Of a stretch of 64,000 nucleotides of DNA, positions 9,221 to 16,757 are shown one piece after another. The number at the start of each line of letters is the position of its first letter. Within the stretch, counting starts at the first letter, position 1. Position numbers and translations under genes: made by a program. Source of the DNA: Naegleria gruberi (Eukaryota); assembly GCA_000004985.1 (NCBI GenBank), contig GG738892.1. The stretch is one strand, 5' to 3'. The notes under the pieces are model-generated. The model did no database searches. It worked only from the letters and a program-made list of their open reading frames with translations, and was not told the DNA's origin.

Positions 9221-10879
9221 ATGCCTAGAATTGGTATTGTAGGAGGTGGTCCAGGAGGACTTTCAACTGCCAGTATGTTTTATTTTGATTTTTATTATGT
9301 TTAAATACAATATTTTTTGTAAACTATTTAAAAACTATTGAAATACACTATTGAAATACTATTGAAATACTTAGTGATTTTGGCTAGTAAGGGATTTGAT
9401 GTAACCATTTTTGAAAAATCCAAAGTAATTGGTGGTAGAACTTCATCATTCAATGTTGGCCATTCCAAATTTGATTTGGGTCCAACTTTTCTCATGATGA
9501 AATTTGTTTTGGATAAAGTTTTTCAAGATGCTGGAAAGGATTCATCGAATTATATGAAATTCCAACAATTAAATCCAATGTACAGATTACAATATAATCC
9601 AGATAAGCATATGGATTGTTATGATTTAACACAAAAATCAAAAATGATTGGTGAAATGAAAAGATGTTTCCCACAAGATGTGAAAGGATATGAAGAATGG
9701 GTTGATTGGGAAACTCAAAGATATGAAAAGTTATTACCACTCTTACAAAAGGCTTACACTTCACATAGTGACGTTGTGTCAATGGACGCAATTCGTGCAA
9801 TTCCATATATGCAATTTCCAAAATCACTTCATGAAATGTTAGGTGGTTTCTATAAGGATCCATTGACCAAGTTATCTTTCAGTTTCCAAGCTAAATATTT
9901 GGGAATGAGTCCATATACTTGTCCTGCTTTTTATGGAATAATTCCATATGTTGAACATGCATTTGGTGTTTATCATGTTGAAGGAGGTCTTTCAGAAATT
10001 ACAAGAACTATGGCCATTGCTGCAACTGAGAATGGAACAAAGATTAAGCTTAATACTCCAGTGACACAATTAATTGTCGATCAAGCTAATAGACGTGTGA
10101 AAGGTGTCAAAGTTATGGAAGAAGGTCAAGAAGAGAATGAATATTATTTTGATGAAGTTGTTTTGAATGCTGACTTCCCTTATGCTGTAAATAATTTAAT
10201 TCCAAATGCTGAAAATTTAATGAAACAATGGAAACCAAGTAAGCTTGCCAAGATGAAATATTCATGTTCCACATTTATGCTTTATTTGGCACTTGACAAG
10301 GAATATCCTGAAATTCAACACCATACCATTTCATTTGCTGATGATTATGCTGCCAATTTGAAGGCCATTCAAGAGGGAAGATTAACAGAAGATTTGTCGA
10401 TTTATGTGAGAAATTCATGTGTTAATGACAAGACAGTTTCACCAAAGGGTAAATCTGGTATCTATGTTTTGGCTCCAATACCTAATCTCATTGATAGTCA
10501 AGGACAAATCGATTGGAATGATCAAAATACTGTAAAGAGATGTAGAGAAATTGTTTTGAACCATTTGGAAAAGAGAGTTGGAATGACTGATATAAGACAA
10601 CATATTGAAGATGAATTGGTCATTACTCCAAAGACATGGCAAAACAATAATATTTACAATGGTAGCGTCTTTTCATTGTCGCACAATCTCTTACAAATGT
10701 TATCCATGCGTCCAAGAAATAAGTTCAACGAATTGGAGGGATTGTACTTGACTGGTGCTCACACTTCTCCAGGTTCTGGACTTCCAACAATCTTTGAAAG
10801 TGGAAGAATGGTTACTGAACTATTGTGTAACAAATATGGTGTACAATATCAAAGATCTAGTTTGTTACATCAAAAATAA
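9221..10879 (+). CDS. crtI: CrtI-type phytoene desaturase (FAD-dependent carotenoid desaturase), two exons approx. join(9221..9272,9375..10879)
   Basis: Exon 1 MPRIGIVGGGPGGLSTAS carries a GxGxxG dinucleotide-binding motif, followed by a GTATGT donor. A ~100-bp intron ends at the cttag acceptor. Exon 2 begins ILASKGFDVTIFEK...GGR. The C-terminal blocks LSIYVRNSCVNDKTVSPKGKSGIYVLAPIPNL and GLYLTGAHTSPGSGLPTIFESG align closely with bacterial and fungal CrtI or Al-1. Confidence 0.8.
9334..9370. repeat. Short tandem repeat (actattgaaatac x ~3) inside the crtI intron
   Basis: The unit actattgaaatac repeats directly, immediately upstream of the intron acceptor. Confidence 0.7.
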
Positions 10880-10890
10880 AAATCTAGAGT

Positions 10891-12465
10891 TTATTGGAGA
10901 TCAGCAAGTTCAGTTTCCTTTTGCTTTAACAAATCAACAGTGCAAGCATATGGTGTTTCGAAATCCAAGTGATATTCACAAGTGGATGGTTCATCAACCT
11001 TACCCAAAACATTTTGAGGACCACACTTGAAGTGAACAATGGCCTTTCTGGCACCAACCTTCCAACAATGTTGACCATCAGTGAAGGACATTTGGTTAGT
11101 TTCAGTGTTGAATTCCTTAAAGTTACCAAGGAGAGTAGAGGAGTGACCTTCTTTTTGATGAGCATTATTGAATGGACAAACTTCATACTTGTATTTCTTT
11201 TGTTCCCATTCGAAACATCTTTCACTAATCTTGAAATATTCACCATTCTTACCATAATTGATAGCCAATTTCTTTTGGAGATCACTATGTGAGTTCTTTA
11301 AGGTGTCAAGTTCATTGTTAACTTCATTATACTTATTTCTAGCTTCCTCAGCATCTTTTAAAATTAAATTAAGGGATTGTTTGTCATGTACATTGTGGTG
11401 GAATCGGAGTTTATACAGGGAAATGATGTGTTTAAGGGATTGAATTGGTTCAGTAAGAATGGATGATAGGGCTTTGTTGATTATTTTAAAAATTTAAAAC
11501 TACTTACCTGGCAACTTGAAGTTATTAAGTTCATCATCATCAAAAAATTGGGCTGGTTCTTCAACTTTTGGAGGTTCAACATTTTCTCCAGTTGGTTGTT
11601 CTCCTTCAGTATTTTCTCCAGTTGGTTGGTCAACTGCAACAGGTGTTGGTGCTGGTTCTTCCTTTTCTTTGGCAGCTTGAGCTTCTTCCCAATCTCTCAT
11701 CTTCTTAGCTCTGAGCAAGTCCTTTTCGAGTCTTTCAACTCTTTCAGCTTCTTCCTTCTTTGTTTGCAATTCATTTAATGTGGTTTCCTTTTCAGTAATC
11801 TTGGATTGCAAATCATCTGATTGAGTTTTCATTTCAGCAAGCTTATTCTTACCATATTCAAGATCAGCATAGACAGAATGGATTGCTGATTTAATGGCAG
11901 CAATTTCATTTTGTAAACTAGCAACAATTTCCTTTCCTAAATCTTTACAGGTATCTTCACAAACTCTGAGAGATGCTTCACCCATAGAAGAGGCAAAGTT
12001 TTCATCGGAACCATCACAACAATCACAAACACCACTATTCAATTAATAATAATATTTAAATACATCTAAATGATCCTCGTATTCATGTACTTACTCGTTA
12101 ACCTTGCTGTGGGAAATGTATTGTGATTTGTAGTGCTTATTTCTACAATAGAATTTAACATCATCACTAAAAGAAAGATCGGAATTACTACAAGCACTTG
12201 TAGCTGGTTCATCACTTCCATCAGCACAATCACAATAATTATCATTTACAGAAGAGAAGGGAATTTCCTCATTCGATTTTAAACATTTAAATTTTTGGTT
12301 TTCAGATGTTTGTGTGTATTTATCCAACAAATCGCTTGGCACTCCGTATGTTGTTCTTTCCTTTGGAGTCAAGGATCCATTGACAGCAAAGATAGTGGCC
12401 ATCATCAGGATAACTACAACAGCCAACATACAACAACTAGTAGCTGAGGTTTTCATTGTATTCAT
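10891..12465 (-). CDS. Glucosidase II beta subunit (PRKCSH-like), at least three exons (approx. 12091..12465, 11500..12042, 10891..11268)
   Basis: Features in N-to-C order:
- a signal-peptide-like N-terminus (MNTMKTSATSCCMLAVVVILMMATIFA)
- two CDCxDGSDE LDL-receptor-like Ca-binding motifs (NYCDCADGSDE and GVCDCCDGSDE)
- a long coiled-coil with an acidic stretch
- a C-terminal mannose-6-phosphate-receptor-homology (MRH) domain (CFEWEQKKYKYEVCPF...HCWKVGARKAIVHFKCG...CEYHLDFETPYAC). Confidence 0.75.
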
Positions 12466-12654
12466 TTTTTTAGGATTTGAAAAACGTGTTTTCTTTGTAT
12501 CGATACATAAAGATCGGAAGTAAGCTTTAAGAATCATCATCATCATATGAATGTCTAATATTATTGGTAGAAATAGATTCTGAATATCAAGGTGAATGAA
12601 TATAGATAATAAGAGAACATGTGAGAGATTAGAGAATAAATTAGAGTTATATTT

Positions 12655-14224
12655 TTAAACAACATTTTCAGTGGAAAAGTTAATTGGTACACAATCAAGT
12701 GTTTTCAAATTAATGAGAACAATTGTTGGACAAGAAACAAATTCAGGAACACAAACCAAACGAGATTTAGTTTCTTTCACTGTCACGAGGGTTGTTTCAA
12801 ATTTAGGGCAATTACCACAAATCATAATGTGGGGTGTATGTTTCATTATAAATGGATCAGTATCTTTGAATGGATAACATCCTAATCATAAGTTTCAGTT
12901 TTACAAAGATAATTATCAAATACTTACTCATGGTATCAGGGGCACTTGGTGCATAATGTCCCCATTGTAATAAGTTCTTCATTACTTCCAATCTAGAGGA
13001 GTAGGTTGAGTACTTTTCAATTTCTGCAACAGTTTGACCAGAAGTAACAAAAACACTGAGAATTGTGTTAAGATTAAATTTGAACAAATTAGAAAACTTA
13101 CTCCAATCCATTCTCTTGAATCAAATGTGGATTAGTAACAAGACGACATGTAGAGAAAGGGGAACTTCTTTGAAGCATAAATGGGTGGATAGGCTGTTGT
13201 GGAATAGTTACGTTCGATGGATCATTAGGACCAGGCATTACATCAACGTCAACAGTATTCACCAATTGTTCTACGAGTCCATCGAATGATTTCATGTGAC
13301 CAGCAATCGAGCTCAATTCTTTTGGTCTCAATGACTAGATTGTAAATATAATGTCACTCGAAGGAAAAATGTTGAACTACTTACACCTCTGACATCAAAT
13401 CTCTTTCCTTCATCTTCAGCTGCAATAACACCATTTCCTGCAATAATTACACGTGAAATCTTAGCTGCAACATCATTAACAAAAGCTCCACTTCCAGCTA
13501 ATCCATTAATAAAATCAAATGCCATTTGTGTGGCAACAACATCATATTTTGGATGACCAACACAAACGCCAGAAATTACAGCCAAATAGGCATCCTTTTG
13601 AGGAACTGTGATAGATCTTTGAGGTGGTGGATCATTAAAAACGATATCTTTGGCGATAAATGTTCCAGAACTATCAATTTGTCCATACAAGCCAGCAATA
13701 ATACCTGTGACTAATTGACTTGTCATTAATCTATTCTTCTCAGAGTTCTTACTTTCAAAAACGACATTACATCTCGAACCATTCAAATCTTCCAAAATTA
13801 AATAATCACTATCTGATACAAAGTTGTCTAATAATTCAACCTTCTCAGCTTCAAAGTTTTTTTCGGTAGTGAATTCTCTCAAAATATTTGGCTTTAGTTT
13901 CATTTCCTTGTAAAGAGTACCAGCAACAGTATATTCCACTCCCATAGTGAGATCCAACATTGATTTTGCTGTTGTGGCATTTGGATACATTTTAGAAATT
14001 TTCTTCAAGAGAGCAGGCTTCATAGTCTTGATTCTATGAGCATATAATTTAGAAAATTGTTGTGTAAATGTTTTATCATTTAGAAGGAAAAGATCCTTTG
14101 ATGCGGAGGTGTGTTGTGTCTGTTCTCTTTCAACTTTTTCAGTGTGTGTTGTACTTGCCGATGATGGCTTGTTTAAAAGTGAAGAAGAAGCAATATTGTT
14201 GGCCAAAGTTTTTGATGATGACAT
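12655..14224 (-). CDS. POLD2: DNA polymerase delta small subunit (POLD2/Pol31), about four exons
   Basis: Exon 1 is 14224..~13340 (MSSSK...RFDVRG). The following exons contain AGHMKSFDGLVEQLVNTVDVDVMPGPNDPSNVTIPQQPIHP and a C-terminal PHIMICGNCPKFETTLVTV...VCVPEF. These are collinear with human POLD2 ([27 protein letters not shown] ... PHVYFCGNTPSFGSK). Confidence 0.8.
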
Positions 14225-14337: not shown

Positions 14338-15171
14338 TTAATAACTCATTTCATCTGGTTGAGGACCCTCTTCTTCATCTGTATCATTGTAATAAGAATA
14401 ATAAGGAATATATTCACTGATAACATCGTTCACATTCGATTCTGCCTCTGTAAATTCCATTTCATCCATTCCTTCAGCTAAATACCAATTTACAAATGCT
14501 TTTCTTCTAAACAACTTTGAGAACTCCTCTGAAGTGAATTTCAAGTAGTTACTCATAGCACTTGAACTAGCCAGGAGAGAGCCACTTCTTTTGAATCCTT
14601 GTTGAGCAACTTTGCAATAGGAAGATTGAAAGTTATTTGGAATCCATTCATGAAAGTACGAGCTTTGATAAATACATGTTCTAAATAGTTCGTTTTCGGC
14701 ATTGGAGGTAGTAAAGTCTCCTCTAAAGGTGGCTGAACAAGTGTAATATCGTCCCTCTTTGGGATTGAGTGAGGCCAAAAAGTGCGAAGGAACCAACAAT
14801 TGGCGTACAATGTCTGTAAGTTGAATGTCAGTGTTATCCATCCCCTTAATTTGTTTTCCAAGAGGTGCCATTGAAGACACTAAAAAGTGAATACGAGGGA
14901 ATGGTATCATGTTAGTTGCCAGCTTTCTCATATCATTATTGACGAACCCATTAAATCTGAACGAGCAAGTTTCAGCACATAGCGACTGAGCAATAACCTT
15001 ATTCACATCTTCTAGATTTGCTTTTTCTAATTCAATCTTATTTCTACAAATATTATACACAGCTTCATTATCATAAAATTTCACATAATCAACAAATTCT
15101 ACAAGGTTTTGCAATTGTAGTATTGAGTTGTATGGTGCCAGCACTCCGTCTGACACGTTCTNNNNNNNNNN
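14338..15171 (-). CDS. Divergent beta-tubulin-like protein; the 5' part is lost in an assembly gap
   Basis: The C-terminal two-thirds of a tubulin is present. [17 protein letters not shown] matches beta-tubulin [27 protein letters not shown] matches SYFVEWIPNN, and [34 protein letters not shown] matches [34 protein letters not shown]. Several other blocks are strongly diverged. The N-terminus runs into the N-run. Confidence 0.75.
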   Translation of the reverse strand, partial: [277 protein letters not shown]

Positions 15172-15624
15172 NNNNNNNNNNNNNNNNNNNNNNNNNNNNN
15201 NNNNNNNNNNNNNNNNNNNNNNNNNNNNNNNNNNNNNNNNNNNNNNNNNNNNNNNNNNNNNNNNNNNNNNNNNNNNNNNNNNNNNNNNNNNNNNNNNNNN
15301 NNNNNNNNNNNNNNNNNNNNNNNNNNNNNNNNNNNNNNNNNNNNNNNNNNNNNNNNNNNNNNNNNNNNNNNNNNNNNNNNNNNNNNNNNNNNNNNNNNNN
15401 NNNNNNNNNNNNNNNNNNNNNNNNNNNNNNNNNNNNNNNNNNNNNNNNNNNNNNNNNNNNNNNNNNNNNNNNNNNNNNNNNNNNNNNNNNNNNNNNNNNN
15501 NNNNNNNNNNNNNNNNNNNNNNNNNNNNNNNNNNNNNNNNNNNNNNNNNNNNNNNNNNNNNNNNNNNNNNNNNNNNNNNNNNNNNNNNNNNNNNNNNNNN
15601 NNNNNNNNNNNNNNNNNNNNNNNN
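15172..15624. other. Assembly gap (453 N)
   Basis: Run of n characters. It removes the 5' end of the tubulin gene and the 3' end of the upstream membrane-protein gene. Confidence 0.99.
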
Positions 15625-16757
15625 TTCTGGCATAGTTCAGAGCTCTGATTGCAGGAATAGTTGTCAAAATTATTACTTGACTCATGGCATAAAAGGAAAG
15701 AATTACTGGAATAGGAATAATATAATCCACCAATTGATTCAAAATGTCAATGCGAGGAAGTGCAAAACTGAGTATGACACAAATTAACATTAAGGTTGTC
15801 GTAACTGATGCTTCCAATTTGATTCCCCAAGTGTCCTTTTCCCTAATAATTACCAATATTAAACAACAAAGAGTAATAATTCCATAAAGGCAATAGAATG
15901 CAATGTACAGAGGAACTGTATTTGGTTTGGTTAAACAACCAGTTCCGAATTGTTTCCATCCGAAACTTGGATAATTATGAGTAAAAGACTCTGGACCCAA
16001 AACCTCAATCATTCCAAGCACCAACCAAATAATTGAATGAAGAGAGAATAAACCAATTTGAACGATCAACAAGAACTTATTACTTAGAAGAAACTTGTAC
16101 ATAATCAAGAGTTTCTTCTGATAGTTACTAAATTGCACTTTCAATGATTGAGAACTGTCATCTTTTTCTTGAGAGATGATATCATTCACAACTTTCTGAA
16201 CTTGTGACCTGTTATTAGAAACATCACCAACTGCTTCTGGAAAACTTGATTTCATAGTTAATAATTGAAATAATCGACCTCGTATCACAAATGAAAAGCA
16301 AGCATACCTTAAAATTATTATTTCTAAAAAAGGGAACGAGAAAAACTACATACATGGCTGGAAGTGGCATAGCCCAACACAAATTGAACGCCACAAATGA
16401 AAATAATCCACAAGGAAAGATATCGCGTCCTATAATCCATCTTAGACACGGTATTAAAACATGTACAGTCCCAGCCATAATATTCGACAAAATCCAAAGC
16501 ATTCCTCTCGAATGAATATGTCCACTCTTTCGTTTCAGAAAGACAACAATCAAAGTAAAGCATAATATTGGAAGAAAGAAAAGCAACATAATAGAAGAAA
16601 ATATAGGAACAATAATGGTATCTGGACATGCTAACATCATCTTGTCTGCTGACGACGACGATAATGAGTTATTGAGCAGTAGAAGAGTATTGACACCTCT
16701 AAAGGGTATCCCTAATTCAAATAATAGAGGATTACAGGGTAAAGAAGATGTATTCAT
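15625..16757 (-). CDS. Multi-pass transmembrane protein, possibly two exons (16757..~16300 and ~16288..15625); C-terminus lost in the gap
   Basis: Both parts consist of several hydrophobic helices: ...IVPIFSSIMLLFFLPILCFTLIVVFL... and ...LLIVQIGLFSLHSIIWLVLGM...YIAFYCLYGIITLCCLILVII.... No family recognised. The X-containing ORFs 15089..16288, 15018..15635 and 15128..15787 are artefacts of translating the N-run. Confidence 0.35.

Follow-up and report, generated by a model that had tools for sequence, protein, structure and literature searches.

A stand-alone, intron-bearing gene of Naegleria gruberi for a predicted CrtN-type desaturase and a putative squalene route to C30 carotenoids in Heterolobosea

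In a 64,000-nt stretch of contig GG738892.1 from the Naegleria gruberi genome assembly GCA_000004985.1 (in the following, the window), an intact two-exon gene at positions 9221 to 10879 encodes a 518-aa enzyme of the CrtI superfamily which, judged by sequence comparison, is a member of the CrtN-type subfamily and not an orthologue of CrtI or Al-1. At a probability of roughly 0.55, we consider it to be a laterally acquired, light-induced squalene/diapophytoene desaturase, a function for which we infer both substrate and product. The gene family as such is already known and the gene is present in databases un- or generically named; the assignment to CrtN, the presence of conserved copies throughout Heterolobosea and the squalene route thereby implied for eukaryotes appear to be new. 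An earlier inspection of the bare letters (the sequence-only reading) had described a stand-alone CrtI-type phytoene desaturase gene. The spliced product is exactly N. gruberi XP_002673172.1/EFC40428.1 (NAEGRDRAFT_71660, UniProt D2VRP7), deposited only under the name "predicted protein". The gene and the motifs of its product, a predicted flavin adenine dinucleotide (FAD) enzyme, are arranged as follows.

9221-10879, plus strand: two-exon gene, predicted CrtN-type desaturase, 518 aa, FAD enzyme
9221..9272, plus strand: exon 1, 52 nt, ATG at 9221, encoding MPRIGIVGGGPGGLSTA and the first base of Met18
9273..9374, plus strand: phase-1 spliceosomal intron, GT...AG, 102 nt, 15.7% GC, with a short ACTATTGAAATAC repeat inside
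9375..10879, plus strand: exon 2, remainder of the 518-aa desaturase, stop codon TAA at 10877-10879
9242..9259, plus strand: N-terminal FAD (dinucleotide) binding motif GGGPGG, aa 8-13
9878..9910, plus strand: subfamily signature block FSFQAKYLGMS, aa 186-196, from sequence comparison
10463..10489, plus strand: conserved block YVLAPIPNL, aa 381-389, quoted in the sequence-only reading
10742..10786, plus strand: C-terminal block LYLTGAHTSPGSGLP, aa 474-488, taken as the C-terminal FAD-binding motif

The protein belongs to the CrtI superfamily and a chance match is excluded. Pfam Amino_oxidase (PF01593) is matched at 9e-28, and the NCBIfam family model TIGR02734 (crtI_fam) gives 397.7 bits against a cutoff of 238.1 (E 7e-119) over aa 6-504. 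Narrower models are not reached, namely the CrtID equivalog model NF058655 (279.5 versus a cutoff of 640), CrtD (206.8 versus 580), CrtO (53.6 versus 1000), the hydroxysqualene dehydroxylase HpnE (TIGR03467; 50.7 versus 283) and the carotenoid isomerase model TIGR02730 (54.5 versus 586.9). The last two scores, together with an identity of 19% to the FAD oxidoreductase at the HpnE position of Palleronia, rule out both an HpnE and a CrtISO-like enzyme. Closest solved relatives are Pantoea CrtI (PDB 4dgk, 1.6e-56) and a gamma-carotene desaturase (4rep), and a fold search of the PDB with an AlphaFold model of the protein (pLDDT 91, pTM 0.91) returned 4rep as best match (TM 0.84/0.88), with 4dgk next. 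Predicted structure and fold search support the fold, C30 and C40 substrates being indistinguishable that way.

Within the superfamily, identities were determined against annotated plasmid genes, the CrtI references among them all adjoining crtB, and against the relatives from a genome scan (see below). Values of 44-47% are found for crtN from Methylococcaceae and other C30 clusters, 39-42% for Bacillaceae crtN and 36-38% for the first desaturase of alphaproteobacterial squalene-route clusters (with hpnC/D/E-like genes), whereas CrtI of Pantoea, Roseobacter and Deinococcus is only 27-30% identical (fungal Al-1 was left out of the comparison). CrtP reaches 24-26%, and references of CrtD type or named "NAD(P)/FAD-dependent oxidoreductase" are 21-23% identical and distant in the tree. 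When scored with profile hidden Markov models (HMMs) for the different gene contexts, the Naegleria protein obtains 653 bits with the profile of proteins encoded next to an ABC1-family gene (see below), 647 with that of the aldH/crtP clusters, 532 with Bacillaceae, 443 with alphaproteobacterial, 300 with CrtI and 263 with CrtP sequences. In neighbor-joining trees on Kimura distances, the eukaryotic sequences form a single group (96-100%) within the CrtN-type radiation. In the larger of these trees (116 sequences, 500 columns, 100 bootstraps), the eukaryote clade is found at 96%, or 76% once Pharyngomonas is included, while the three CrtI group on their own (98% bootstrap), with CrtP and CrtD still more distant.

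Conservation at the residue level was evaluated with 84 prokaryotic CrtN-type proteins. In 94 of the 105 columns that are at least 95% conserved among them, the Naegleria protein has the identical residue, and many of these columns differ from CrtI, for example FQxKYLGMS versus FHxLLVGGN. The signature block at aa 186-196, which was also used as search pattern, reads FTFQSKYLGMS in the prokaryotic CrtN-type proteins and differs from canonical CrtI at most positions. Likewise, proline at position 11, within the dinucleotide-binding motif, is typical of the CrtN-type subfamily, where CrtI has F, L or I. The 11 changed columns are mostly conservative, with the exception of a C-terminal GGGTHPGSG that has become GAHTSPGSG and is considered further below. 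No targeting extension precedes the FAD-binding strand at the N-terminus; the enzyme is presumably cytosolic and membrane-peripheral, located where squalene is made.

The designation as CrtI-type phytoene desaturase is thus correct with respect to the superfamily, whereas its CrtI/Al-1 part is ruled out by the low identity, the separate CrtI clade and the CrtI profile score of 300 versus about 650 bits (with Al-1 outside the comparison). Because of these subfamily comparisons, the label "CrtI-type phytoene desaturase" is replaced by "CrtN-type C30 desaturase". The phylogenetic check against CrtI and CrtD, which the sequence-only reading had proposed, shows that neither groups with the Naegleria protein in the neighbor-joining trees; it falls into the CrtN-type radiation instead. 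The option of another substrate, also mentioned there, points the right way, as CrtN works on squalene or dehydrosqualene. Its examples do not fit, however, going by the low score on the CrtISO model (RetSat and PYROXD2 were outside the comparison).

The gene is a resident of the nuclear genome and is under purifying selection. Its GC content of 34.1% and its GC at third codon positions (GC3) of 24.3% compare with 33-37% and 23-33%, respectively, in neighboring genes. The ratio of nonsynonymous to synonymous substitution (dN/dS) is about 0.06 (dN 0.05, dS 0.81) versus L097, a 1670-nt contig of a close relative with 86-89% nucleotide identity, and about 0.1 versus N. fowleri, the orthologue of which is 78% identical. 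L097 carries one unbroken open reading frame (ORF), and its nucleotide alignment to the window covers both exons, with L097 positions 108-160 pairing with exon 1, and omits exactly 9273-9374, by which the predicted exon structure is confirmed. The orthologous intron of N. fowleri (145 nt, L098 10041-10185) follows nt 40 of the coding sequence, 12 nt further upstream than the N. gruberi intron, which follows nt 52. Each gene hence carries just one intron, of phase 1 and close to its 5' end, but at differing sites, for which sliding of the intron, an independent gain or an incorrectly modelled splice site in one of the annotations may account. Protein database searches, with the best 120 matches listed, gave homologues from N. 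fowleri, N. lovaniensis, Willaertia magna, Acrasis kona (two copies) and Pharyngomonas kirbyi as well as from eukaryote-like metagenome contigs, whereas the nearest non-heterolobosean relatives among the matches listed are all prokaryotic. Several homologues are called "phytoene desaturase" in databases, and the N. fowleri names are "hypothetical protein" or "amine oxidase domain-containing protein". Accordingly, the sequence-only reading had rightly taken the locus, with its 102-nt GT-AG intron and the three motifs that it quoted (GxGxxG, present as GGGPGG, YVLAPIPNL and the C-terminal block), as an intact nuclear gene and not as contamination; its allusion to old horizontal transfer agrees with a prokaryotic origin of the gene.

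Besides the orthologues, a second and more divergent paralogue (47-51% identical) is present in Willaertia (P0014) and N. lovaniensis (P0015, L099 10001-12005), with no N. gruberi or N. fowleri copy among the matches listed. In this paralogue, several otherwise invariant residues are altered, for example H333, Y342, P385 and H454, and the N. lovaniensis protein bears an Arg/Ser-rich N-terminal extension of about 38 aa resembling a mitochondrial presequence. The Pharyngomonas kirbyi sequence (P0016, EukProt EP00761) scores 743-750 bits on the prokaryotic profiles, compared with 549-653 for the other eukaryotic sequences, and would represent either an early-branching copy that has evolved slowly or a bacterial contaminant in the transcriptome, an alternative which affects the dating of the transfer.

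The desaturase gene stands alone in the window, as had been claimed. A Pfam scan of the 64 kb (ORFs of at least 150 aa and one shorter neighbor) gave housekeeping-type domains only, among them glucosidase II beta, DNA polymerase subunit B, tubulin, ArsA/GET3, lipase, NUDIX, kinase, Rad51, RPN7, SDR and UMP synthase. HMMs for squalene/phytoene synthase, ABC1, aldehyde dehydrogenase, glycosyltransferase family 2 (GT2), acyltransferase and HpnE found no further match in any frame of the window at E ≤ 1, and the best tblastn match for an ABC1 homologue was at E 0.22. Altogether, none of the conceivable pigment partners (squalene/phytoene synthase, CrtP, aldehyde dehydrogenase, GT2, acyltransferase, ABC1, cyclase, oxygenase or opsin) was found within the window, nor beside the copies of N. 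fowleri, N. lovaniensis, Acrasis or the eukaryote-like metagenome contigs. Sterol-making eukaryotes already make squalene, and Naegleria makes sterols. Because CrtN works on squalene, which is already made for sterols, the gene could stand alone and no phytoene synthase would be needed; by analogy, a single acquired crtN could suffice for the formation of conjugated C30 polyenes in a sterol-making eukaryote.

The proposed sequence of events would start with an ancestor of the Heterolobosea acquiring crtN from bacteria, the descendant of which is now an ordinary nuclear gene. Its product, an FAD-dependent and membrane-peripheral enzyme, would take squalene (or dehydrosqualene) from the squalene synthase of the sterol pathway and introduce successive conjugated double bonds, giving polyenes of the 4,4'-diapophytoene, diaponeurosporene or diapolycopene type. 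Expression would be strongly switched on by light and oxidative stress, and the polyenes might quench singlet oxygen and excited sensitizers such as ingested chlorophyll. For Heterolobosea in general (Naegleria, Willaertia, Acrasis and Pharyngomonas), we only tentatively propose, at somewhat less than even odds, such a eukaryotic squalene route in which a CrtN induced several hundred-fold by light and reactive oxygen species (ROS) diverts squalene to photoprotective C30 diapocarotenoids.

Published work on bacterial CrtN bears on the proposed substrate. Planctopirus CrtN acts downstream of squalene, as established by mutants and reconstruction in E. coli, where squalene synthase and the downstream Planctopirus genes from crtN on yield 4,4'-diapolycopene and where a plain squalene synthase substitutes for HpnCDE (Santana-Molina et al.; PMC9907078). 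Among CrtN-bearing prokaryotes, squalene is the commonest precursor, nearly all of them possessing a squalene source and the Methylococcales only Sqs, while for a few CrtN-like members in Cyanobacteria, Chloroflexi and Myxococcota a C40 substrate is considered possible (PMC9907078). A survey of Methylomonas found one SQS_PSY gene and a crtN cluster, without crtM or hpnCDE, and the single strain lacking crtN was unpigmented (PMC10745290).

Light induction has been described for a Naegleria species in which "phytoene desaturase" is represented by one contig (Uzuka et al., 2019; PMC6898599). By quantitative reverse-transcription PCR, this contig was induced upon illumination 709-fold with green prey, 545-fold with pale prey and 530-fold without prey, H2O2 likewise raised it in darkness, and rose bengal or chlorophyll-stained prey gave a stronger induction (PMC6898599). 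It did not receive a KEGG orthologue assignment (PMC6898599), in keeping with a protein not belonging to the customary CrtI groups. The same list of up-regulated genes holds squalene synthase (K00801), two squalene epoxidases and other sterol genes, and a geranylgeranyl-diphosphate synthase is shown with the Naegleria carotenoid genes in a supplementary figure; phytoene synthase is not listed for Naegleria among the KEGG-annotated light-responsive contigs, and the supplement lists no ABC1/ADCK kinase (PMC6898599). Acanthamoeba, in the same study, has the fungal set of AL1, AL2 (cyclase/phytoene synthase) and carT (PMC6898599). In the literature searched, nothing was found joining Naegleria with CrtN and nothing useful on carotenoids of Acrasis or Heterolobosea; Naegleria and phytoene synthase occur together in one paper.

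For comparison with the prokaryotic relatives, 185,579 species genomes, one per bacterial and archaeal species, were scanned, which returned 80 close relatives, and the ORFs called around these loci were scored by small HMMs. More than half of the loci (44) are C30 carotenoid clusters, 17 adjoin an ABC1-family gene and 19 neither. Most C30 clusters have the order crtN-aldehyde dehydrogenase-crtP(-GT2) and come from Methylomonas, Methylobacter and other Methylococcaceae, Acidobacteria, Verrucomicrobia, Kiritimatiellia and Brocadia/Planctomycetes; in eight loci from Bacillaceae/Paenibacillus, crtN is joined by a crtM-like synthase and another CrtI-like gene. An ABC1/UbiB-family gene of about 400 aa had adjoined the homologue in all four prokaryotic contexts inspected at the outset (metagenome-assembled genomes (MAGs) of Patescibacteria, Verrucomicrobia and Woesearchaeota and one metagenome contig). 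Together with the genome scan, 21 loci thus carry a two-gene module of CrtN-type desaturase and ABC1/UbiB family, in Verrucomicrobia, Kiritimatiellia, Lentisphaerae, Acidobacteria, Fibrobacter, Fusibacter, Patescibacteria and Woesearchaeota.

L001, 6790-9524: CrtN-type + ABC1 module
L003, 8001-10750: CrtN-type + ABC1 module
L004, 8001-10778: CrtN-type + ABC1 module
L007, 6144-8951: CrtN-type + ABC1 module
L017-L019, L021-L024, L026, L033-L038, L047, L081 and L086: other loci with the module

Clustering of the neighboring ORFs leaves desaturase and ABC1 as the only two conserved genes of the module, and no squalene/phytoene synthase was found within 6-10 kb of the 21 loci. With 157.6 bits on the UbiB model (cutoff 487.55), the ABC1 protein of the module is, by its sequence, a family member and not UbiB itself. 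The desaturases of the module are 46-49% identical to the Naegleria enzyme. A distinct ABC1-linked clade apart from the pigment genes, as seen at 100% in a tree of 58 sequences, was dropped, since ABC1-linked and C30-cluster-linked proteins interleave when the 80 additional loci are included. As they are interleaved and their profiles score alike (653 versus 647 bits), both groups look like one functional family in two settings. Upstream of the module, a gene with MerR and B12-binding domains (CarH/LitR-like by Pfam) is present in L001 (5682-6521, minus strand) and L003 (5960-6877, minus strand), belonging to Patescibacteria and Verrucomicrobia MAGs. This was the case in only two of the 21 ABC1-linked loci, and an HMM from the two sequences otherwise matched just one Paenibacillus locus, so that a general CarH/LitR link was dropped; either the link is not general or the two-sequence HMM is too weak. 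In the literature searched, we found neither a description of the CrtN-type + ABC1 pair nor any link of ABC1, CarH and phytoene desaturase. This widespread prokaryotic pair deserves a study of its own. Another pairing of a desaturase with a kinase-like gene outside a pigment cluster is seen on a Chondrocystis plasmid (L012, 4337-7491), where a CrtN-like gene annotated as "zeta-carotene desaturase" lies between a TetR regulator and a "homoserine kinase" gene.

Several observations weigh against a squalene/diapophytoene desaturase in Naegleria. Naegleria is not known to be a pigmented organism, and we infer the substrate, the product and the photoprotective role of the enzyme. Near none of the eukaryotic copies, a CrtP-like oxidase, an aldehyde dehydrogenase or a glycosyltransferase was seen. 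The published contig is assumed to correspond to the gene in the window and might be a paralogue. At aa 478-486 (window 10754-10780), the Naegleria and Willaertia orthologues read GAHTSPGSG instead of the GGGTHPGSG invariant in the 84 prokaryotic CrtN-type proteins, a sequence with AGTHPGAG as its near counterpart in CrtI; Ser takes the place of the conserved His, and another His appears two residues before it, while Acrasis, Pharyngomonas and the heterolobosean paralogues retain the His of the motif. Bootstrap values of the backbone inside the CrtN-type radiation range only from 0 to 28, and because of this no donor lineage can be named. Moreover, among the 19 prokaryotic proteins with the highest identity to that of Naegleria, we count 12 of the ABC1-module type, and Patescibacteria and Woesearchaeota, which host the module, are to our knowledge unlikely to make squalene. 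Part of the subfamily, possibly including its eukaryotic branch, may therefore use another lipid.

This would lead to a CrtN-like flavoenzyme acting on a different lipid, for example another polyprenyl compound, the side chain of a quinone, a sterol intermediate or an acyl chain, maybe together with an ABC1/UbiB-type ATPase, and induced by light and ROS without giving any pigment. The module loci from many phyla with no synthase nearby, the altered C-terminal motif and the apparent lack of pigmentation would all be explained in this way, whereas the interleaving with pigment-cluster proteins at equal scores, the 94 retained subfamily residues, the window without an ABC1 homologue and the squalene source of nearly all CrtN-bearing bacteria (PMC9907078) make it unlikely, albeit an option to be taken seriously. 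Less probable still is a classical C40 phytoene desaturase, as proposed in the sequence-only reading, with synthase, and perhaps cyclase and oxygenase, encoded elsewhere, resulting in lycopene- or retinal-type carotenoids. Pathway genes of eukaryotes are normally unlinked, and superfamily membership, the database names of several homologues, the geranylgeranyl-diphosphate synthase contig listed with the light-induced genes (PMC6898599) and the few CrtN-like proteins possibly using C40 substrates (PMC9907078) are all compatible with such an enzyme, but the identity to CrtI of only 27-30%, the separate CrtI clade, a CrtI profile score half that of the CrtN type, a CrtID score far below its cutoff and the missing phytoene synthase among the annotated light-responsive Naegleria contigs, in contrast to the AL1, AL2 and carT of Acanthamoeba (PMC6898599), render it improbable. 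Membership in the RetSat, PYROXD2 or CrtISO branch as a non-carotenoid saturase or oxidoreductase, an option raised for RetSat and PYROXD2 in the sequence-only reading, would agree with the common superfamily fold and is very improbable, considering the 54.5 bits on the CrtISO model, as opposed to the 397.7 on crtI_fam, and the remote position of the oxidoreductase and CrtD-type references (RetSat and PYROXD2 sequences were outside the comparison). Finally, the prokaryotic nature of the closest non-heterolobosean relatives among the matches listed could speak for bacterial contamination, for a recent transfer or for a nonfunctional pseudogene undergoing decay. These are refuted by the spliceosomal intron, host-like composition, low dN/dS, eukaryotic flanking genes, synteny with N. 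fowleri and homologues across Heterolobosea, and in Naegleria sp. the induction of a related transcript is both very strong and specific (PMC6898599), so that their probability is practically nil.

Among known systems, the squalene-route CrtN of Methylomonas, Planctopirus limnophila, Verrucomicrobia and Acidobacteria resembles the favored CrtN-type desaturase of Naegleria in subfamily, identity, profile score and conserved residues, and a single-enzyme squalene synthase rather than CrtM, seen as transcript in Naegleria sp., would be a further likeness to Methylomonas. Unlike these bacterial genes, the Naegleria gene is eukaryotic, bears an intron, is not clustered with crtP, aldH or crtQ and encodes the GAHTSPGSG variant. 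Pantoea ananatis CrtI (PDB 4dgk) and fungal Al-1/CarB have superfamily, length, N- and C-terminal FAD motifs and fold in common with it, Al-1/CarB additionally the light-induced transcription (on the Naegleria side that of the published Naegleria sp. contig), but CrtI differs by low identity, separate clade and half the profile score (Al-1 outside the comparison), and no phytoene synthase partner was seen in the window or among the published Naegleria contigs. An Al-1/Al-2/CarT set was found in Acanthamoeba and not in Naegleria in the same study (PMC6898599). The dehydrosqualene desaturase CrtN of Staphylococcus, involved in staphyloxanthin synthesis, would catalyze the same type of C30 reaction as proposed here, but is only 29% identical and weakly associated in the tree. 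Staphylococcus uses CrtM and not squalene synthase. The most similar prokaryotic proteins are those of the CrtN-type + ABC1 module, from which the Naegleria locus differs by having no ABC1 gene in the window; the CarH-like regulator at two module loci would parallel the light induction in Naegleria. With RetSat, PYROXD2 and CrtISO, merely the broad flavoenzyme superfamily is shared (the CrtISO model stays far below its cutoff; RetSat and PYROXD2 were outside the comparison).

Carotenoid synthesis in eukaryotes is thought of as C40 synthesis, either plastid-derived or of the fungal Al-1/Al-2 type, and we know of no description of C30 carotenoid synthesis in any eukaryote. If true, a third route of bacterial C30 type, consisting of one acquired gene atop sterol synthesis, would have to be added; it would, as far as known, be the first example of a C30 carotenoid pathway among eukaryotes, and any sterol-making cell could turn carotenogenic by means of a single gene. 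In a Naegleria species, a related transcript ranks with those responding most strongly to light (PMC6898599). In addition, a functional name would become available for a protein now deposited as "predicted" in N. gruberi or "hypothetical" in the pathogen N. fowleri, an enzyme without human counterpart.

Downstream of the desaturase gene, two genes on the opposite strand are both syntenic with N. fowleri.

10891-12546, minus strand: multi-exon glucosidase II beta-subunit (PRKCSH) gene, downstream neighbor
13328-14224, minus strand: DNA polymerase subunit B gene, downstream neighbor

In N. fowleri, one additional gene, encoding a 467-aa protein of unknown function, lies between desaturase and PRKCSH. 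Further downstream in the window, at 14338-16288 on the minus strand, two long ORFs (14338-15633 and 15089-16288) overlap in different frames and give matches to the tubulin C-terminal and, partially, to the GTPase domain, which suggests a divergent member of the tubulin family whose gene is split by an intron or a change of frame.

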